Below, piece by piece: positions 25,069-44,883 of a DNA stretch of 50,195 nucleotides. Where the stretch lies: NCBI GenBank assembly GCA_009694865.1, contig SICD01000003.1:1-50195 (forward strand), written 5' to 3'. Position 1 is the first letter of the stretch; each line of letters opens with the position of its first letter. The position numbers were made by a program, and so were the translations under genes. This stretch comes from Candidatus Magasanikiibacteriota bacterium (lineage in GTDB: Bacteria; Patescibacteriota; Patescibacteriia; Magasanikbacterales; GWA2-37-8). The notes beneath the pieces are model-generated. The model had not been told where the DNA came from, made no database searches, and saw only the letters and a program-made list of their open reading frames with translations.

Positions 25069-25074
25069 ACCCCT

Positions 25075-25564
25075 GTTCATTACAGGTAATCGAGCCGCAA
25101 TTGCGGCTAGGAAAGTCCGAACACCCCCAGTTTTTATTTCGCTACCTACTGGGAAAAGGATAGTGGGCAACACCCACCGTTCCGATGGCAACATCGGAAA
25201 AGGGACAGTGGCACAGAGACAATACTACTGCGCCTCGCCGTAGCTTTAGCGGAGGCGGGAAAACCCCGCCTACGCCAAGGCTTCGGCGAGGCAAAGGAAA
25301 GGTGAAAAGTGTATGGGAGTTGTGGCCCTCGAGACCACAGCTACGATACTCCGCCCTGGAGCAATCCTTGGCGTGTGCTAAACCCTATCTGGTGCAAGAG
25401 CAGCGTCTCTCGGAGTTATTCTGAGATTCGAAAAGTTCGCTCGCTACGCCTTGCCAAAATTTTAGGACGGCGGCAAGGCTGACCCCACGAGCAATCGTGA
25501 GGCTAGATAAATGATTACCATCCCGAATAACTCGGGAAACAAAATTCGGCTTATCGCAATGAAC
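25075..25564 (+). ncRNA. rnpB: RNase P RNA
   Basis: P1 GTTCATT/AATGAAC; AGGAAAGTCCGAAC, AGTGGCACAGA, GGTGAAA, AAACCC..GGTGCAAG, TAGATAAATGAT and ACAAAATTCGGCTTAT conserved blocks in the expected order. Confidence 0.93.
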
Positions 25565-25566
25565 AA

Positions 25567-25594
25567 AAAACACCGCCCGCAAGGGTGGTGTTTT
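25567..25594. terminator. Terminator after rnpB (bidirectional with ribH)
   Basis: AAAACACCGCCC-GCAA-GGGTGGTGTTTT. Confidence 0.85.
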
Positions 25595-39272: not shown

Positions 39273-41027
39273 TTACCGTCTTTCTCGTATTTCTGCTTTT
39301 ACCTTTTCAATAAATTCATTCTTAACCATCTTCAATTGTTCCTCGACACCACGCACGCGTATCGTCCATTCTCCGCCTTCGAGCTCCCTGTCCCCCACCA
39401 CCACAATATACGGAATTTTTTGTTTAGCCGCATTGCGCACTTTTTTACCAATAGATTCATCAGCATCATCCATCGCAGCGCGGATACCGGCCCTCTGAAA
39501 TTCCTCCAAAAGTTTTTTGGCTCCATCCACGTGCTTTTCAGAAACCGGCGCGAGCATTACCTGCACGGGTGAAAGCCAAACCGGAAACGCGCCGGCGTAG
39601 TGTTCGATAAGAAACGCCATAATGCGCTCAATCGCTCCGATGGAAGATCGATGGACTACCACCGCCCGTTTTTCCGTTCCGTCTTCGGCGTTATATTTCA
39701 AATCAAACCGCTCTGGCATGCACAGATCATACTGCACAGTAAAGGCGGTGTCTTCCTTGCCGTTCACGTTTTTCATCTGAATATCCACTTTCGGACCATA
39801 AAAGGCGGCTTCGCCAGGCGCTTCCACAAAACGACTACCCCGAGCAGTCAAATGCTTTCGGAGCAAATCTTCTGCCTTCTCCCAACCCGCGTCATTCTTG
39901 TAATATTTTTCTGAATTGGAGCGGTCGCCGAGTGAAAGCCGATACCAATACTCGGTGCCGTGTACCAAACCAAATACGCCAGCGATATATTCAATCAAAT
40001 CTAACGCCTTGCCCACTTCCGCCACGGCTTGCTCTTCCGAAGCACAAATAATGTGGGCATCAGCGAGGCAAAATGCGCGGACTCGCTGTAAACCGGAAAG
40101 CTCGCCCGATTGTTCGTAACGATACAACTGCGCCAATTCCGCAATTCTCACCGGCAATTCGCGGTAGCTGTGCGGTTTACGGAGGTAGAGCTCAAAATGA
40201 TGCGGGCAGGTCATGGGTCGGAGCATGAATTCCTCGTCATCAATTTTTATGGGCGCGTACATGGAATCTTTATAGTGCGGATAATGCCCGGATTTTTTAT
40301 ACAAATCAAGCTTGGCAATATCCGGCGTTCTCACGTGCAAATACCCGCGACGAAGTTCCTCATCAACAATAAACCGCTCCAATTCACGCCGTATCGTGGC
40401 GCCTTTTTCCGTCCACAAGGGCAACCCTTTGCCGACGCTTTCGGAAAAAGTAAATAAATCCAGCTCCTTGCCCAATTTTTTATGGTCTCGCATTTTAGCT
40501 TCTTCCAACATCGTTAAATGTTTCTGAAGTTCATCTTTAGTTGGAAAACAGGTGCCATAAATGCGCGTCAGCATTTTATTTTTCTCACTCCCGCGCCAAT
40601 ACGCTCCTGCCACGGACATGAGTTTAAAATGTTTAATTTCATCTTTAGGGTGTTCCAAATGCCCGCCTTTGCAGAGGTCGAGAAATTCACCCTGCTTGGT
40701 TTCGGTAATCATTTTCCCCTGCATCGCAAACTCATCAATCAATTCGGATTTATAAATATTCCAAGCAAAATCTTTTTTCGCCTGCGCTACCGGCACTTCT
40801 TGAATAGCAAAAGTATCCCAAGTTTTTAAAACTTCTCGCATCTTATTTTCTATTTTCTCAAAATCTTCCTCGGAGATTTTTACCTCTCCCATATCAAAAT
40901 CCTGATAAAAACCGTCCTCTATGGAAGGGCCAATGGCATTTTGCGCGCTCGGCCAAATACTTCGCACGGAGGCGGCCAAAAGATGAGCGCAGGAGTGGCG
41001 GAGATTGTTTAGGTGTTCTTGGTCCAT
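39273..41027 (-). CDS. thrS: Threonine--tRNA ligase (short form lacking the N-terminal TGS domain)
   Basis: LRHSCAHLLA, DLCKGGH, RDHKKLGKEL, LRPMTCPHH, GEAAFYGPK, VHRSSIGAIER. Confidence 0.97.
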   Translation of the reverse strand: MDQEHLNNLRHSCAHLLAASVRSIWPSAQNAIGPSIEDGFYQDFDMGEVKISEEDFEKIENKMREVLKTWDTFAIQEVPVAQAKKDFAWNIYKSELIDEFAMQGKMITETKQGEFLDLCKGGHLEHPKDEIKHFKLMSVAGAYWRGSEKNKMLTRIYGTCFPTKDELQKHLTMLEEAKMRDHKKLGKELDLFTFSESVGKGLPLWTEKGATIRRELERFIVDEELRRGYLHVRTPDIAKLDLYKKSGHYPHYKDSMYAPIKIDDEEFMLRPMTCPHHFELYLRKPHSYRELPVRIAELAQLYRYEQSGELSGLQRVRAFCLADAHIICASEEQAVAEVGKALDLIEYIAGVFGLVHGTEYWYRLSLGDRSNSEKYYKNDAGWEKAEDLLRKHLTARGSRFVEAPGEAAFYGPKVDIQMKNVNGKEDTAFTVQYDLCMPERFDLKYNAEDGTEKRAVVVHRSSIGAIERIMAFLIEHYAGAFPVWLSPVQVMLAPVSEKHVDGAKKLLEEFQRAGIRAAMDDADESIGKKVRNAAKQKIPYIVVVGDRELEGGEWTIRVRGVEEQLKMVKNEFIEKVKAEIRERR

Positions 41028-41052: not shown

Positions 41053-41478
41053 TTAATTATATTCTTCATACTCAATTTTCATCCCGCCTCTCTCAAACTC
41101 CCCAACCAATTCATTTATAACCTGACCATAATTAAGAAACACCGGAATGGTAAAATTCGATCCTTCTTCTCTCGCTAATTCCACTATTTTATTTGCTACA
41201 GCCAAATATGATGGTGGGCCAGATTTTTCGAAAACAGAAAAACTGATTCTTTGTTCTATGGCTAAACGTAAATTTTCGTTAGTACAGTGCCCGCGCAACA
41301 ATTTAATACACTTAAGTTTTTGGGCCGGGCTGCCTTCAAATTTTTTTATAATTATTCTGTATTGCTTAATTGTTTCCGACTTATCTTTTGCGGAGTCTTC
41401 TCTGCGCTGTTTATTTGCTGCCTCCCTCAAGTACGCAAAAGGGTCTTCATTACGAGTAGAAAATGGTGGTTTGGACAT
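41053..41478 (-). CDS. Hypothetical protein between the T-box and thrS
   Basis: 141-aa AT-rich ORF with ATG just after the T-box terminator. Confidence 0.65.
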   Translation of the reverse strand: MSKPPFSTRNEDPFAYLREAANKQRREDSAKDKSETIKQYRIIIKKFEGSPAQKLKCIKLLRGHCTNENLRLAIEQRISFSVFEKSGPPSYLAVANKIVELAREEGSNFTIPVFLNYGQVINELVGEFERGGMKIEYEEYN

Positions 41479-41495: not shown

Positions 41496-41685
41496 AAAAA
41501 AAACCCGATAAGCCTAAAACAGGCCGTATCGGGGTCTGTGATAAATCACGGACGGTTCCACCCGAAAGTTTCGCTCATTCACCAGCTGTCATCCCGACCG
41601 AAGTGCAGGGATCCCTCGACTTCGCTCGGGATGACAGTTGAATTTATTCACAGCGAGATTGGTAGTCTCGCATCAACCAGACTGA
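41496..41685 (-). promoter_or_regulatory. Thr T-box riboswitch (transcription attenuator)
   Basis: Antiterminator TCGGG-TGGAACC-GTCCGTGAT..ATCACAGAC-CCCGA overlaps terminator CCCGATA..TATCGGG-T8; ACC lies in the loop of a 5' hairpin; upstream of thrS. Confidence 0.85.
41587..41636. mobile_element. Short TGTCAT...ATGACA element inside the T-box leader
   Basis: TGTCATCCCGACCGAAGT...ACTTCGCTCGGGATGACA. Confidence 0.8.
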
Positions 41686-41689
41686 ATCT

Positions 41690-41718
41690 ACTATACAAAA
41701 TAATGAATTGACTGTCAA
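41690..41718 (-). promoter_or_regulatory. Promoter of the T-box/thrS unit
   Basis: TTGACA-17 nt-TATAGT. Confidence 0.75.
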
Positions 41719-41831: not shown

Positions 41832-42980
41832 TCACTGGACATTTTTTACGATCACTTTAATCTTATCCGGCACGCTCGGCGCGCTTAACATCCACGAGGG
41901 CGAAAACTTAACATCCACCTGGGCCACATGCTCCAGCCCCAAAACATAACGTTCAATATCGGCTTTTTTCTTGCTCAAAAAGTGTTCGGCGCTTAAGGCG
42001 TCCCCATTAGCCTCCAGCGTTACCCCCACATCTTGGCGGACGCTTAATTCAGCTGTGCCCTCTTTAGCGTTAAAACTAACCACCGTTACCTGCGGCGCGC
42101 CTGCGCCGGCCGCCACAAAGCGCTCGGCTCCCGCGTCAACTTTATCGGCAATTTGTTTATTTACCAAAGCGACAAGCTCGCTCGCGGTATAGCGCACCAC
42201 CACAATCGTGCTGGTACCGCTCACGGTAAAACCGGTCACTTCTTCACCGGCTTTGTGGTCAGCCTTGGCGTGGCTATCTAATACCGTTACAATCTGTGCC
42301 ATTTGATCATCGCTGTCTTTGAGACTCTTCCGAAACGCTTCTTCAACCTTTTGTTTATAGGCAAGTTCGGCGCTCTTAATATCATCGGCGCTTAAAATGG
42401 CTAAACTGGCCACGCCGCCGCTCATTGGGGCAGTACTCTCGGCAAAAATAACCTTTTGTTTGTCGGTAACCAGACCCGGAATAGTAAATGAACTGGGGGC
42501 AATATCATAGGCGGCGCCTTTTTGGTCCGCATACACCCGCGCCGTAATCTGGCCATTGGCCGGGACAGTAACACCTTCGCTTAATCGGAACAATGCCCCG
42601 CCCGGAGTGAGGAAACGCGTCGTTTTAACCAGGGACTGTGCGGTCTTGGTTTTATTAAAAATAACCACCGCGCCAGTCGCTATTCCCGCTACAGTCTTAT
42701 TGCCGGTCGGGTGAAAATCTTCGCTCCACGGAAAAATTTGAGATTGCACACTACCCACCACACTGCTCGCGGCCACCACTTTTGCGCCCACACCAACCGC
42801 CAAGGCGATGCTCTTGATGTCATTTTTCGCCACAATGGTAATGACGGCCTTTTTGGAGGTCATAAAAATAACCAGTGCCAAAAGAATAATAGTGACAGCC
42901 AAAAAAGATAAGGCAATAATTTTATAAAACTTCACCGATGGCTCCAAAGGAGGTTGAGTAGCAAGACGATACGTTATCAT
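41832..42980 (-). CDS. Membrane-anchored protein with baseplate-J-like region (CPR-common)
   Basis: TM; ATGAVVIFN...QSLVKTTRF..G.LFRL...VTVPA...VYADQ.G..Y.I....FTIPGL. Confidence 0.65.
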   Translation of the reverse strand: MITYRLATQPPLEPSVKFYKIIALSFLAVTIILLALVIFMTSKKAVITIVAKNDIKSIALAVGVGAKVVAASSVVGSVQSQIFPWSEDFHPTGNKTVAGIATGAVVIFNKTKTAQSLVKTTRFLTPGGALFRLSEGVTVPANGQITARVYADQKGAAYDIAPSSFTIPGLVTDKQKVIFAESTAPMSGGVASLAILSADDIKSAELAYKQKVEEAFRKSLKDSDDQMAQIVTVLDSHAKADHKAGEEVTGFTVSGTSTIVVVRYTASELVALVNKQIADKVDAGAERFVAAGAGAPQVTVVSFNAKEGTAELSVRQDVGVTLEANGDALSAEHFLSKKKADIERYVLGLEHVAQVDVKFSPSWMLSAPSVPDKIKVIVKNVQ

Positions 42981-43140: not shown

Positions 43141-44883
43141 TCATTCCGCCACCCGGAAAACTTCTTCAATCGTCGTAATTTTGTCCAAAGCCTTCAAAAG
43201 CCCGTCTTGCACCATCGTCACCATTCCATTTTTAACCGCCATTTCCTGGATGGTATATTCAGAAACTTTACTGCTCAAAATAACCTCTTCAATTTCTTTC
43301 GAGAGATGGAAAATTTCATAAATACTAATGCGCCCTTTATATCCCAAACCACTGCAAGCCGAGCACCCGGCGCCTTTATAAAAATGGAGATTATTTAGAT
43401 CAAACGATAGCTTTTCTTTTTCGGGCAATGCTTCCAAAATTCCTTTCACCCGCGCCAAACGTTCGGGGTCCAGCGTCTCTTCGATTTTGCAAACTTCGCA
43501 AATTCGACGCACCAAGCGTTGTCCAATCACCGCGTTAAGGGCCGGCGCGAGCAAAAACGGTTTGACCCCCATTGATAAAAACCTGGGGATAACCCCCGCC
43601 GCGCTGTTGGTGTGGATAGTGGACAGCATAAGATGACCGGTGAGCGCCGCTTGGATGGCGATTTCCGCGGTTTCTAAATCCCGAATTTCGCCGACCATGC
43701 AAATATCCGGATCTTGACGCAAAATACTGCGGAGCCCCTTGGCAAAACTATAATCATGGCTCGCGTCCACCTGGCTTTGGTTGATTCCATTCATTTTAAT
43801 TTCAATCGGGTCTTCCAAAGTAATAATTTTTACCCCAGGCTTATTTAATTCATGTAACACAGCGTACATAGTGGTAGTTTTACCACTACCCGTGGGACCA
43901 GTGGTAATAACCATGCCATTAGGACGTAAAATTTCCCGTTTTAATTCTTCGTACACTGTGCCGCGCAGACCCAGTTCATCAAAACTCACACCCTTACTGC
44001 CGCTATGCAAAATACGCATCACCACGCTCTCGCCATGAATAGTAGGCAAGGTCGAAACGCGAATATCCAGACTCCCCCCCGATAGTTGCAAAGTAACACG
44101 GCCATCCTGCGGACGATCGGTAACATTAATTTTAAGCGCCGCCAACAATTTTATGCGCGATACAAACCGTTGCCACTGCTCTTTTGGCAAATGCGCTACA
44201 TCGTGAAGGATACCATCAATACGATACCGAACGGCAATATCATCCTGCTCGGCCTCAATATGAATATCGGTAGCGTTAACCTTAAGCGCCGACGCCACCA
44301 CCAGCGTTAAAATATCGGTAATGGTAACATTGCGAAATGACTCCTCCAAACTTTGCAGATTATCCACCCCCGCCACATATTTTTCTAAATCTTCATCGGT
44401 AATAATAAAATCTTTCGAAATTGGTTTTACGATTGGTAAATTGCCATACAATTTTAAAACCCTTTCCAAACTATGCGGCGACATAAGATATGGCCTCACG
44501 GTGGCGTGAAATCGCTCGCCAAGCTGATACAAAACATCATCCAATTCCGACCGCGGCTCTACCACGCCCACCCGCATTTCTTCCGGCGTAAAATAAAAAC
44601 AGGCTATCCCCTCCGCGCGCGCCTGATTCTCGGGGATGGCTCGCAGTGCCTCCGCCGATACCGGAAACGCGCTCAAATCAATATGCGGCATCCCCAATTT
44701 ACGCGCCTCTTCCGCCACCAGTATTTCTTTTTCTTTCAAGGTAATTTCTTCCATTTTGCTCGCAAAAATTTGCTGGGCGCTGTGAGTAGTGTTGCCTTTA
44801 GCGCCCCGGGAACCGCCCGATGCTTTAGTTGGCACACCACTCTTGCTTCTGCTAATATCACTAATTGAAGGAAAATCGGACAT
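43141..44883 (-). CDS. pilB: Type IV pilus assembly ATPase (PilB/GspE family)
   Basis: ATDIHIE, PQDGR, GPTGSGKTTT, TLEDPIE, LRQDPD, AALTGHLMLSTIHTN, CxxC pairs. Confidence 0.9.
   Translation of the reverse strand: MSDFPSISDISRSKSGVPTKASGGSRGAKGNTTHSAQQIFASKMEEITLKEKEILVAEEARKLGMPHIDLSAFPVSAEALRAIPENQARAEGIACFYFTPEEMRVGVVEPRSELDDVLYQLGERFHATVRPYLMSPHSLERVLKLYGNLPIVKPISKDFIITDEDLEKYVAGVDNLQSLEESFRNVTITDILTLVVASALKVNATDIHIEAEQDDIAVRYRIDGILHDVAHLPKEQWQRFVSRIKLLAALKINVTDRPQDGRVTLQLSGGSLDIRVSTLPTIHGESVVMRILHSGSKGVSFDELGLRGTVYEELKREILRPNGMVITTGPTGSGKTTTMYAVLHELNKPGVKIITLEDPIEIKMNGINQSQVDASHDYSFAKGLRSILRQDPDICMVGEIRDLETAEIAIQAALTGHLMLSTIHTNSAAGVIPRFLSMGVKPFLLAPALNAVIGQRLVRRICEVCKIEETLDPERLARVKGILEALPEKEKLSFDLNNLHFYKGAGCSACSGLGYKGRISIYEIFHLSKEIEEVILSSKVSEYTIQEMAVKNGMVTMVQDGLLKALDKITTIEEVFRVAE

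Follow-up and report, generated by a model that had tools for sequence, protein, structure and literature searches.

A Strongly Reduced T-box-Like Leader Upstream of thrS in a Candidatus Magasanikiibacteriota Bacterium, With a Predicted Intrinsic Terminator

Introduction

How much of a T-box riboswitch can be dispensed with while the RNA still reads a transfer RNA (tRNA) and chooses between termination and readthrough? The question is raised by a leader on the minus strand of contig SICD01000003.1 (assembly GCA_009694865.1) from a Candidatus Magasanikiibacteriota bacterium, of which we analyzed one stretch of 50,195 nt, hereafter the window. In this leader a Stem I of 19 nt with a threonine codon in its apical loop, a T-box-like discriminator and an intrinsic terminator precede thrS, encoding threonine--tRNA ligase. 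The T-boxes with an intermediate or ultrashort Stem I that are treated in the relevant passages of one review (PMC7583486) are translational and occur mostly in Actinobacteria, and the corresponding part of another source likewise contrasts short with long Stem I (PMC11297988). As these passages tie a short Stem I to translation, an apical-loop specifier combined with a terminator is unusual against them, in agreement with a first-pass annotation of the window that had thought the combination undescribed. Our literature search found no paper joining T-boxes with Patescibacteria or the candidate phyla radiation, although the supplementary tables of TBDB, which lay outside that search, might list such leaders. 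Comparison with related leaders makes it quite likely, in our judgment, that the element is a genuine if strongly reduced T-box leader, controlling the transcript of thrS and of a 141-aa open reading frame (ORF141) by tRNA-Thr-dependent antitermination.

Organization of the Leader

All parts of the leader lie on the minus strand, and coordinates here and in Table 1 are positions of the window; L-numbers denote leader/thrS loci of relatives. The bulge with both of its helices, the Stem I hairpin containing ACC and the U8 terminator, all reported in the first pass, were found at the positions of Table 1. Transcription would start near 41683, judging from the promoter sequence, and Stem I begins approximately 12 nt past this presumed start. 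The loop, CUACCAA, is shaped like an anticodon loop (C-U-ACC-A-A, of the form Y-U-NNN-A-R), and its UACCA is complementary to U33-G34-G35-U36-A37 of tRNA-Thr(GGU), whose own loop reads AUGGUAA. Stem I is joined to the discriminator by a linker of 15 A/U-rich nucleotides, a 58-nt repeat hairpin and a further 20 nt. Directly after the palindrome and before UCGGG stands the string GAAUGAGCGAAACUU, and the purine string in this part of the leader fits the RRRNG...AA flanks of Stem III described in a portion of PMC7778990.

Folding of the 3′ part of the leader gave one of two structures, depending on how much of it was included. When the 3′ arm of the terminator was left out, the antiterminator was the minimum-energy fold (-12.4 kcal/mol); when the arm was included, the terminator won. 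Since CCCGA, the 3′ strand of helix A1, also opens the 5′ arm of the terminator, the two structures are mutually exclusive, and the shared strand and the fold energies together bear out the earlier claim to this effect. Terminator-like hairpins followed by U-rich tails are general among the relatives; an automated rule recognized them at no fewer than 46 of 58 sites.

Two further features of the 5′ part were noted. The leader's 5′ end, GUCUG (41677-41683), is complementary to the 3′ arm of helix A2, CAGAC (41534-41538), and pairs with it in the full-length RNAfold minimum-energy fold; this complementarity may be coincidental. A K-turn at the base of Stem I and a possible 5-bp closing helix, GUUGA/UCAAC, were also considered, but they are not conserved in L003 or L106 and we make no claim for either.

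Specifier and Bulge in Related Leaders

If the leader is a T-box, the codon in Stem I and the variable base of the bulge should both follow the gene downstream. Specifiers were assigned by a rule calling for a hairpin of at least 4 bp with a loop of 6-9 nt in which the codon is followed by a purine, and 110 distinct leaders were compared. Among 77 thrS leaders, a Thr triplet was present in 70, either in the hairpin loop or as internal-loop GGUACY, and the bulge began with UGGA in 76. Of the 22 glyS leaders, 11 had GGC and 10 GGA, and all had UGGA; all five ileS leaders combined AUC with UGGU. Six leaders stand outside this tabulation, three lacking a matching gene nearby and three having the gene far downstream. 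Non-cognate triplets were found at background level (ACC, for example, in 3 of 22 glyS leaders). The Thr triplets in apical loops of the relatives' thrS leaders are ACC or ACU, and the loops of the first hairpin read, for example, UUGGCGC, AUUGGCA, or CCGGCAC for Gly and UUAUCAG for Ile. In glyS and ileS loops the U-codon-A frame is often retained; in the thrS set, its U and A positions are fixed by the choice of motif.

In some genomes of the order there is more than one such leader, two or three in all, and the additional ones stand ahead of glyS or ileS genes, identified by NCBIfam models for glycine--tRNA ligase (NF003211, 642 bits) and isoleucine--tRNA ligase (TIGR00392, 597 bits, partial ORF). 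In the genome of the window, the discriminator base is U73 in tRNA-Gly and in tRNA-Thr (both the GGT and the TGT gene), and A73 in tRNA-Ile. Taken with the codon and bulge counts, these bases indicate that both variable T-box positions follow the tRNA. Two predictions of the first-pass annotation were thereby confirmed, namely that the loop codon would co-vary with the amino acid across synthetase leaders of relatives, and that tRNA-Thr(GGT) would have a discriminator U, as fits UGGA.

The ileS leaders (L055, L058, L060, L064, L067) have the loop UUAUCAG, a long second stem, CGGGUAAGCCCG, the bulge UGGUACC and a hairpin followed by U6-7. In Peribacteria or Gracilibacteria, three loci (L078, L084, L119) have Gly-codon loops, CCGGCAC or UUGGAAC, ahead of genes that do not encode synthetases. 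The gene in L078 is a formyltetrahydrofolate deformylase-like ORF (NF004684, 279.8 bits, code 25); in L078 and L084 the deformylase-like ORF begins approximately 450 nt past the T-box motif, with a short stretch intervening after the terminator.

Covariation of the Helices

The pairing of Stem I was assessed in thrS-type leaders picked by the loop motif YYACCAR with no filter for pairing, which gave 28 distinct relatives, three false cases (L067, L144, and a second site in L026) included. The seven pairs flanking the loop were formed in 81.1% of cells, a value that none of 500 shuffles reached (50.8% shuffled); there were 61 double-change cells compared with 19.2 in shuffles, and controls in which the partner was slid along the sequence were at most 47.4% paired. 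For helices A1 and A2, compared in 85 leaders, 95.0% of cells were paired (79.3% shuffled; slid controls at most 62.5%), with 153 double-change cells compared with 42.6 in shuffles. All seven A2 pairs change on both sides among the relatives.

Phylogenetic Distribution

ThrS is encoded in all 41 related genomes, and GGGTGGAACC with a following hairpin was found upstream of thrS in 16 of 30 thrS loci, the window's own counted. From 13 of these 16 loci we built a covariance model of the discriminator (R1), restricted to the purine string, A1, bulge and A2. In the 0.99-Mb genome of the window, R1 has one match, which is the leader studied here (65.1 bits, E = 5.7e-15). Within the same family R1 matched 82 of 100 genomes, mostly once per genome, and within the same order it matched 99 of 151, where the matches were concentrated in three families (46/59 in f1, 49/58 in f5, and 3/7 in f8, against 0/26 in seven others). 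Sampling across the phylum gave matches in 9 of 151 genomes. The seven distant ones all lie ahead of ThrS-like ORFs, as judged by eye from N-terminal sequence, and in each a short hairpin, with ACC or ACU and a following A in its apical loop, precedes a hairpin with a U run. An exact-pattern scan found leaders in Candidatus Magasanikbacteria, Magasanikiibacteriota, Kerfeldbacteria, Peribacteria, Gracilibacteria and the Patescibacteria group; G+C-rich matches of that scan in Streptomyces and others, with no U run and no thrS, were treated as chance. Hence the combination of termination with an ultrashort Stem I, on which the first-pass annotation had remarked, is present in the window but is not peculiar to this genome, and belongs to a clade-wide class.

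This class is connected to known T-boxes by the Rfam T-box model, RF00230, which matches 5 of 20 related leaders (L076, L088, L064, L055, and L033) significantly, though below its threshold. Their scores range from 29.9 to 54.1 bits, the best being that of L076 (54.1 bits, E = 5.4e-9). Such matches link the class to the T-box family and at the same time explain its escape from annotation. According to the part of PMC7778990 that describes its searches, the short-Stem-I model of TBDB was run only on Actinobacteria and on RF00230 hits, a scope under which such leaders would be missed.

Variation of Stem I Among Relatives

Stem I varies widely among the relatives. In the long type, seen mostly in family f5, Stem I is extended, carrying the specifier in an internal loop and reaching on into a long distal stem. 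An intermediate form, Type B, is found in many members of the window's own family and has the arrangement GAGA-ACCAGCCCAG-hairpin-UAUGGUACCAC-UCUC. In the apical-loop form, Type A, to which the window and others belong, the same basal helix (CGAGA/UCUCG) is closed directly by CUACCAA, and it looks from the sequences as if the distal part of Stem I had been deleted. Other Type A leaders are fuller, with a closing helix, two small hairpins, a GAUUGA motif and GRCUAAGC as extra parts. These additions are absent from the window and from L003, L127, L150 and L193, which comprise Stem I, the discriminator and a short linker joining them, so that the window ranks with the most reduced forms. A G+C-rich Stem III is present in the relatives' glyS leaders and in some thrS leaders.

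Among the loci compared, the closest ThrS is that of L106, also from Candidatus Magasanikiibacteriota (79.6% identical over 225 aa); Stem I of the L106 leader is of the intermediate type. ThrS of the congener L003 is 64.7% identical. The window's leader is a mosaic with respect to these two, its promoter and Stem I matching L003 and the 3′ half of its repeat, purine string and A2 matching L106. Stem I types seem to change fast between close relatives.

Repeat and Neighboring Genes

The palindrome in the linker had been called a miniature inverted-repeat transposable element (MITE) in the first pass. The palindrome itself is real, with inverted repeats and many dispersed copies, but the MITE label is unproven and no target-site duplication was seen; the comparison was made with the repeat-free leader of L003, from which the window has diverged too far for one to be recognized. 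At its ends the palindrome has TGTCATCCCGA, part of a dispersed repeat family, and the 10-mer GTCATCCCGA has 69 copies in the genome, while simple arithmetic predicts approximately two for any 10-mer when both strands of the 0.99 Mb are counted. The palindromic element is missing from the leader of L003. In L106, a shorter hairpin with the same ends occupies the same place, next to an A2 helix nearly identical to the window's, so that the insertion is not unique to the genome of the window. A mir-M7 match in the region (28 bits, gathering score 91) was rejected, as it is only the palindrome fitting a hairpin model. Genome-wide, two short palindromic repeat families are abundant, GTCATCCCGAG (44 copies; 69 for the 10-mer) and the related GTCATTGCGAG (44 copies), and one copy of the latter abuts the -35 box of the leader promoter (Table 1).

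Downstream of the leader, thrS was confirmed by Pfam and by TIGR00418, as the first pass had proposed, but it is not the next ORF, since ORF141 intervenes. ORF141 has no Pfam family and no match in 40 relatives, and its sole cluster among 5.8 billion clusters is itself. thrS starts 25 nt past its end on the same strand, with no promoter-like site between the two. In many relatives (L005, L008, L015, L018, L025, L041, L046, L049, L051, and L059) the slot between T-box and thrS holds a GNAT acetyltransferase of approximately 180 aa, that of L005 matching Acetyltransf_3 (E = 2.2e-25), and in L010 it holds a phosphoribosyltransferase. The upstream gene, a 382-aa ORF ending at 41832, matches neither a Pfam nor an NCBIfam family, but in many relatives its C terminus, ...KVIVKNV, is seen again ahead of the thrS leader. 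The ORF comes after a T2SSE/PilB-like ATPase. The pilus-like locus and thrS form a conserved synteny. Elsewhere in the window, the model of bacterial RNase P RNA class A, which has 367 positions, matches over 496 nt, so that insertions are probably present.

TABLE 1. Leader elements and other features of the window, with positions in its numbering.
Feature	Position	Strand	Basis or remark
sigma-70-type promoter TTGACA-17-TATAGT	41690..41718	-	11/12 consensus matches; conserved in L003
Ultrashort Stem I, 6-bp hairpin GCGAGA (41671-41666)/UCUCGC (41658-41653) with 7-nt apical loop CUACCAA (41665-41659)	41653..41671	-	Covariation
Specifier ACC (Thr), next base A	41661..41663	-	Codon tracks synthetase in relatives
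Palindromic element, inverted dimer of dispersed repeat unit (TGTCATCCCGA...)	41583..41640		29-nt arms, 86% complementary
Purine string GAAUGAG-CG-AAACUU	41566..41580	-	Fits RRRNG...AA flanks of Stem III
Helix A1 5′ strand UCGGG (41565-41561) and 7-nt bulge UGGAACC (41560-41554)	41554..41565	-	Fold, covariance model
Helix A2 hairpin GUCCGUG-AUUUAU-CACAGAC, one C.A mismatch	41534..41553	-	Fold; covariation
Helix A1 3′ strand CCCGA	41533-41529	-	Whole antiterminator 41565-41529
Intrinsic terminator, hairpin CCCGAUA.CGGCCU...AGGCU.UAUCGGG (41533-41504) and U8 (41503-41496)	41496..41533	-	-16.6 kcal/mol
141-aa orphan ORF, first ORF past terminator	41053..41478	-	ORF list
thrS, threonine--tRNA ligase	39273..41027	-	Pfam; TIGR00418 646.5 bits, cut-off 383.65
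Copy of repeat GTCATTGCGAG	41760-41720
382-aa ORF, upstream gene	41832-42980	-
T2SSE/PilB-like ATPase	43141-44883	-
Bacterial RNase P RNA class A	25074-25569	+	124.2 bits (gathering score 100)

Proposed Mechanism and Alternative Explanations

The arrangement suggests how the leader may work; tRNA binding, sensing of charge and termination are all inferred here from the sequence. The nascent RNA would form the 6-bp hairpin, whose loop CUACCAA would present ACC to the GGU anticodon of tRNA-Thr. Given that UACCA is able to pair with all five bases from U33 to A37, this contact would be of the loop-loop kind. The linker would contribute only a self-contained repeat hairpin. Antitermination at the discriminator would then keep CCCGA out of the terminator, and polymerase would continue into ORF141 and thrS. 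With no tRNA, or with charged tRNA, the stabler terminator and U8 would form and transcription would stop at approximately 41496-41503. Complementary anticodon loops pair stably, and this is a possible reason why a short hairpin might suffice. The stricter proposal is that two tRNA contacts are enough during transcription, namely a loop-loop kiss of at most five bases and the pairing of UGGA with the 3′ UCCA, with no elbow platform, Stem II, pseudoknot or Stem III; we put this forward tentatively, giving it somewhat less than an even chance.

Several observations weigh against a functional T-box at this locus. RF00230 gave no match in the window at its gathering score (93 bits, below which the window stays) and none in the region at E up to 10, its best match in the genome lying elsewhere (E = 8.69); the check with a T-box model of the Infernal type envisaged in the first pass therefore went against the leader. 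Neither a distal Stem I platform nor a Stem II domain is present in the window, and where a stable Stem III would be expected the flanks AUGAG...AAA are separated by only 2 nt, with no hairpin of 4 bp or more. Passages of PMC7583486 state that a long Stem I with an elbow-binding motif is generally required in transcriptional T-boxes, and that a truncated Stem I binds tRNA barely detectably without Stem II. The reason given, in the portions of the reviews that address it, is that contact with the elbow speeds tRNA binding before polymerase reaches the terminator. With respect to covariation, the A1/A2 alignment was fitted to the model and the Stem I rows were chosen by motif, and since the relatives are kin, significance is overstated when judged against shuffles. 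At 12 of 58 sites no terminator was recognized by the automated rule; some of these are chance sites in coding regions and others real leaders with one or two unpaired bases between hairpin and U run (L003 and L010), and the terminators of the relatives' ileS leaders are weak (-1 to -5 kcal/mol). Lastly, the first ORF past the terminator is an orphan and not thrS, and the repeat element inside the leader could impair the switch, though as a closed linker hairpin it need not disturb it.

Some of these observations would also be explained if the leader were a T-box in decay, inherited in working order but deprived in this genus of its Stem II-like hairpins and Stem III and invaded by a repeat, leaving a constitutive, partly leaky attenuator with no response to tRNA-Thr. 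The window and L003 are indeed missing hairpins 2 and 3 and the GRCUAAGC of fuller Type A leaders, the window has no stable Stem III and carries the repeat in its linker, and the need of a truncated Stem I for Stem II, as stated in that part of PMC7583486, points the same way. However, the loop CUACCAA, its stem, the purine string, the bulge and A1/A2 are intact across the window, L003 and L106, and the window's R1 score lies in the upper part of the family. Moreover, equally minimal leaders occur in unrelated lineages (L127, L150, and L193), which would be unexpected under decay. We therefore regard decay as unlikely.

A T-box that acts on translation, or at both levels, with the 3′ hairpin hiding a ribosome-binding site, is considerably less probable still. 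All experimentally described apical-loop T-boxes in the review passages at hand are translational. In the window, though, U8 follows directly 3′ of the hairpin, the hairpin contains no purine-rich, Shine-Dalgarno-like run, and the first start codon lies 18 nt past the U tract in A/U-rich surroundings; a hairpin with a U run is also the rule in relatives. Chance resemblance, in which an ordinary terminator of the upstream gene happened to contain TGGAACC, can practically be set aside, for although TGGNACC-like strings abound (the genome has 31 GGTGGNACC sites, of which only this one was seen by eye to have a hairpin and U run) and Rfam gives no match, a near-consensus promoter stands between upstream gene and element, the genome has a single R1 match with a very low E-value, the helices covary, and the matches in the family's genomes always precede thrS-, glyS- or ileS-type genes.

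A reduced T-box acting by antitermination thus accounts best for the locus. On the stricter proposal of two contacts, the minimal natural tRNA-sensing switch would measure approximately 100 nt without the repeat, and a whole order of Patescibacteria would offer a natural series of reduction from long through intermediate to apical-loop Stem I (thrS, glyS, and ileS), all below the Rfam threshold. A conserved and covarying class that joins an apical-loop specifier to a terminator, in this genome with neither Stem II nor Stem III, would be a natural counter-example to the requirement for a long Stem I, and the question of the minimal tRNA sensor becomes directly testable with a short RNA. Riboswitch censuses that depend on the Rfam threshold overlook T-boxes of Patescibacteria. 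To our knowledge, few regulators are known in these bacteria; apparently, as far as the leaders' sequences indicate, they keep direct feedback of tRNA charge on thrS, and in relatives on glyS and ileS as well.

Comparison With Known T-boxes and Repeat Elements

The repeat in the linker resembles repetitive extragenic palindromic (REP)-like elements and MITEs in its many copies (69 of the 10-mer), its palindromic form and its intergenic position; no target-site duplication was visible when it was set against the diverged, repeat-free leader of L003.

With canonical transcriptional T-boxes (RF00230; glyQS, tyrS, and thrS of Bacillus subtilis) the leader shares a codon followed by a purine, with C in the third position; a 7-nt bulge that separates A1 from A2 and opens at its 5′ edge with UGGN, with a purine string before A1; an antiterminator strand shared with an intrinsic terminator and its U run; and an aminoacyl-tRNA synthetase gene. 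The discriminator core, according to the passage of PMC7583486 that treats it, is essentially identical across known T-boxes. The leader differs from the canonical form in a Stem I of 19 nt instead of approximately 100 nt, in a codon placed in an apical instead of a side loop, and in having no double T-loop elbow platform, Stem II, Stem IIA/B or stable Stem III. glyQS-type T-boxes also have no Stem II and use a G+C-rich codon-anticodon pair, as does the window, and it has been suggested, in the relevant passage of PMC7583486, that such a pair may make Stem II dispensable in glyQS. Nevertheless, Stem III and a long Stem I bearing the elbow platform are retained in glyQS, and the window has neither.

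The ultrashort-Stem-I ileS T-boxes of Actinobacteria (with structures from M. tuberculosis and N. farcinica), as portrayed in the source passages available, are alike in the apical-loop specifier, the absence of elbow contact and the discriminator core. Those T-boxes are translational, with a Shine-Dalgarno sequestrator and a dependence on Stem II (S-turn) and the IIA/B pseudoknot, whereas the window has a terminator with U8, a thrS gene (ACC) and no Stem II domain. The relatives' ileS leaders resemble the actinobacterial ileS type but end in a hairpin with U6-7. Use of a terminator and absence of Stem II set the window's leader, with its predicted function, apart from the known short-Stem-I class. 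By its Stem I, its Stem III and its Rfam score, the leader falls outside the T-box family as usually delimited; by its discriminator, its specifier logic and its descent, it is a T-box in kind.

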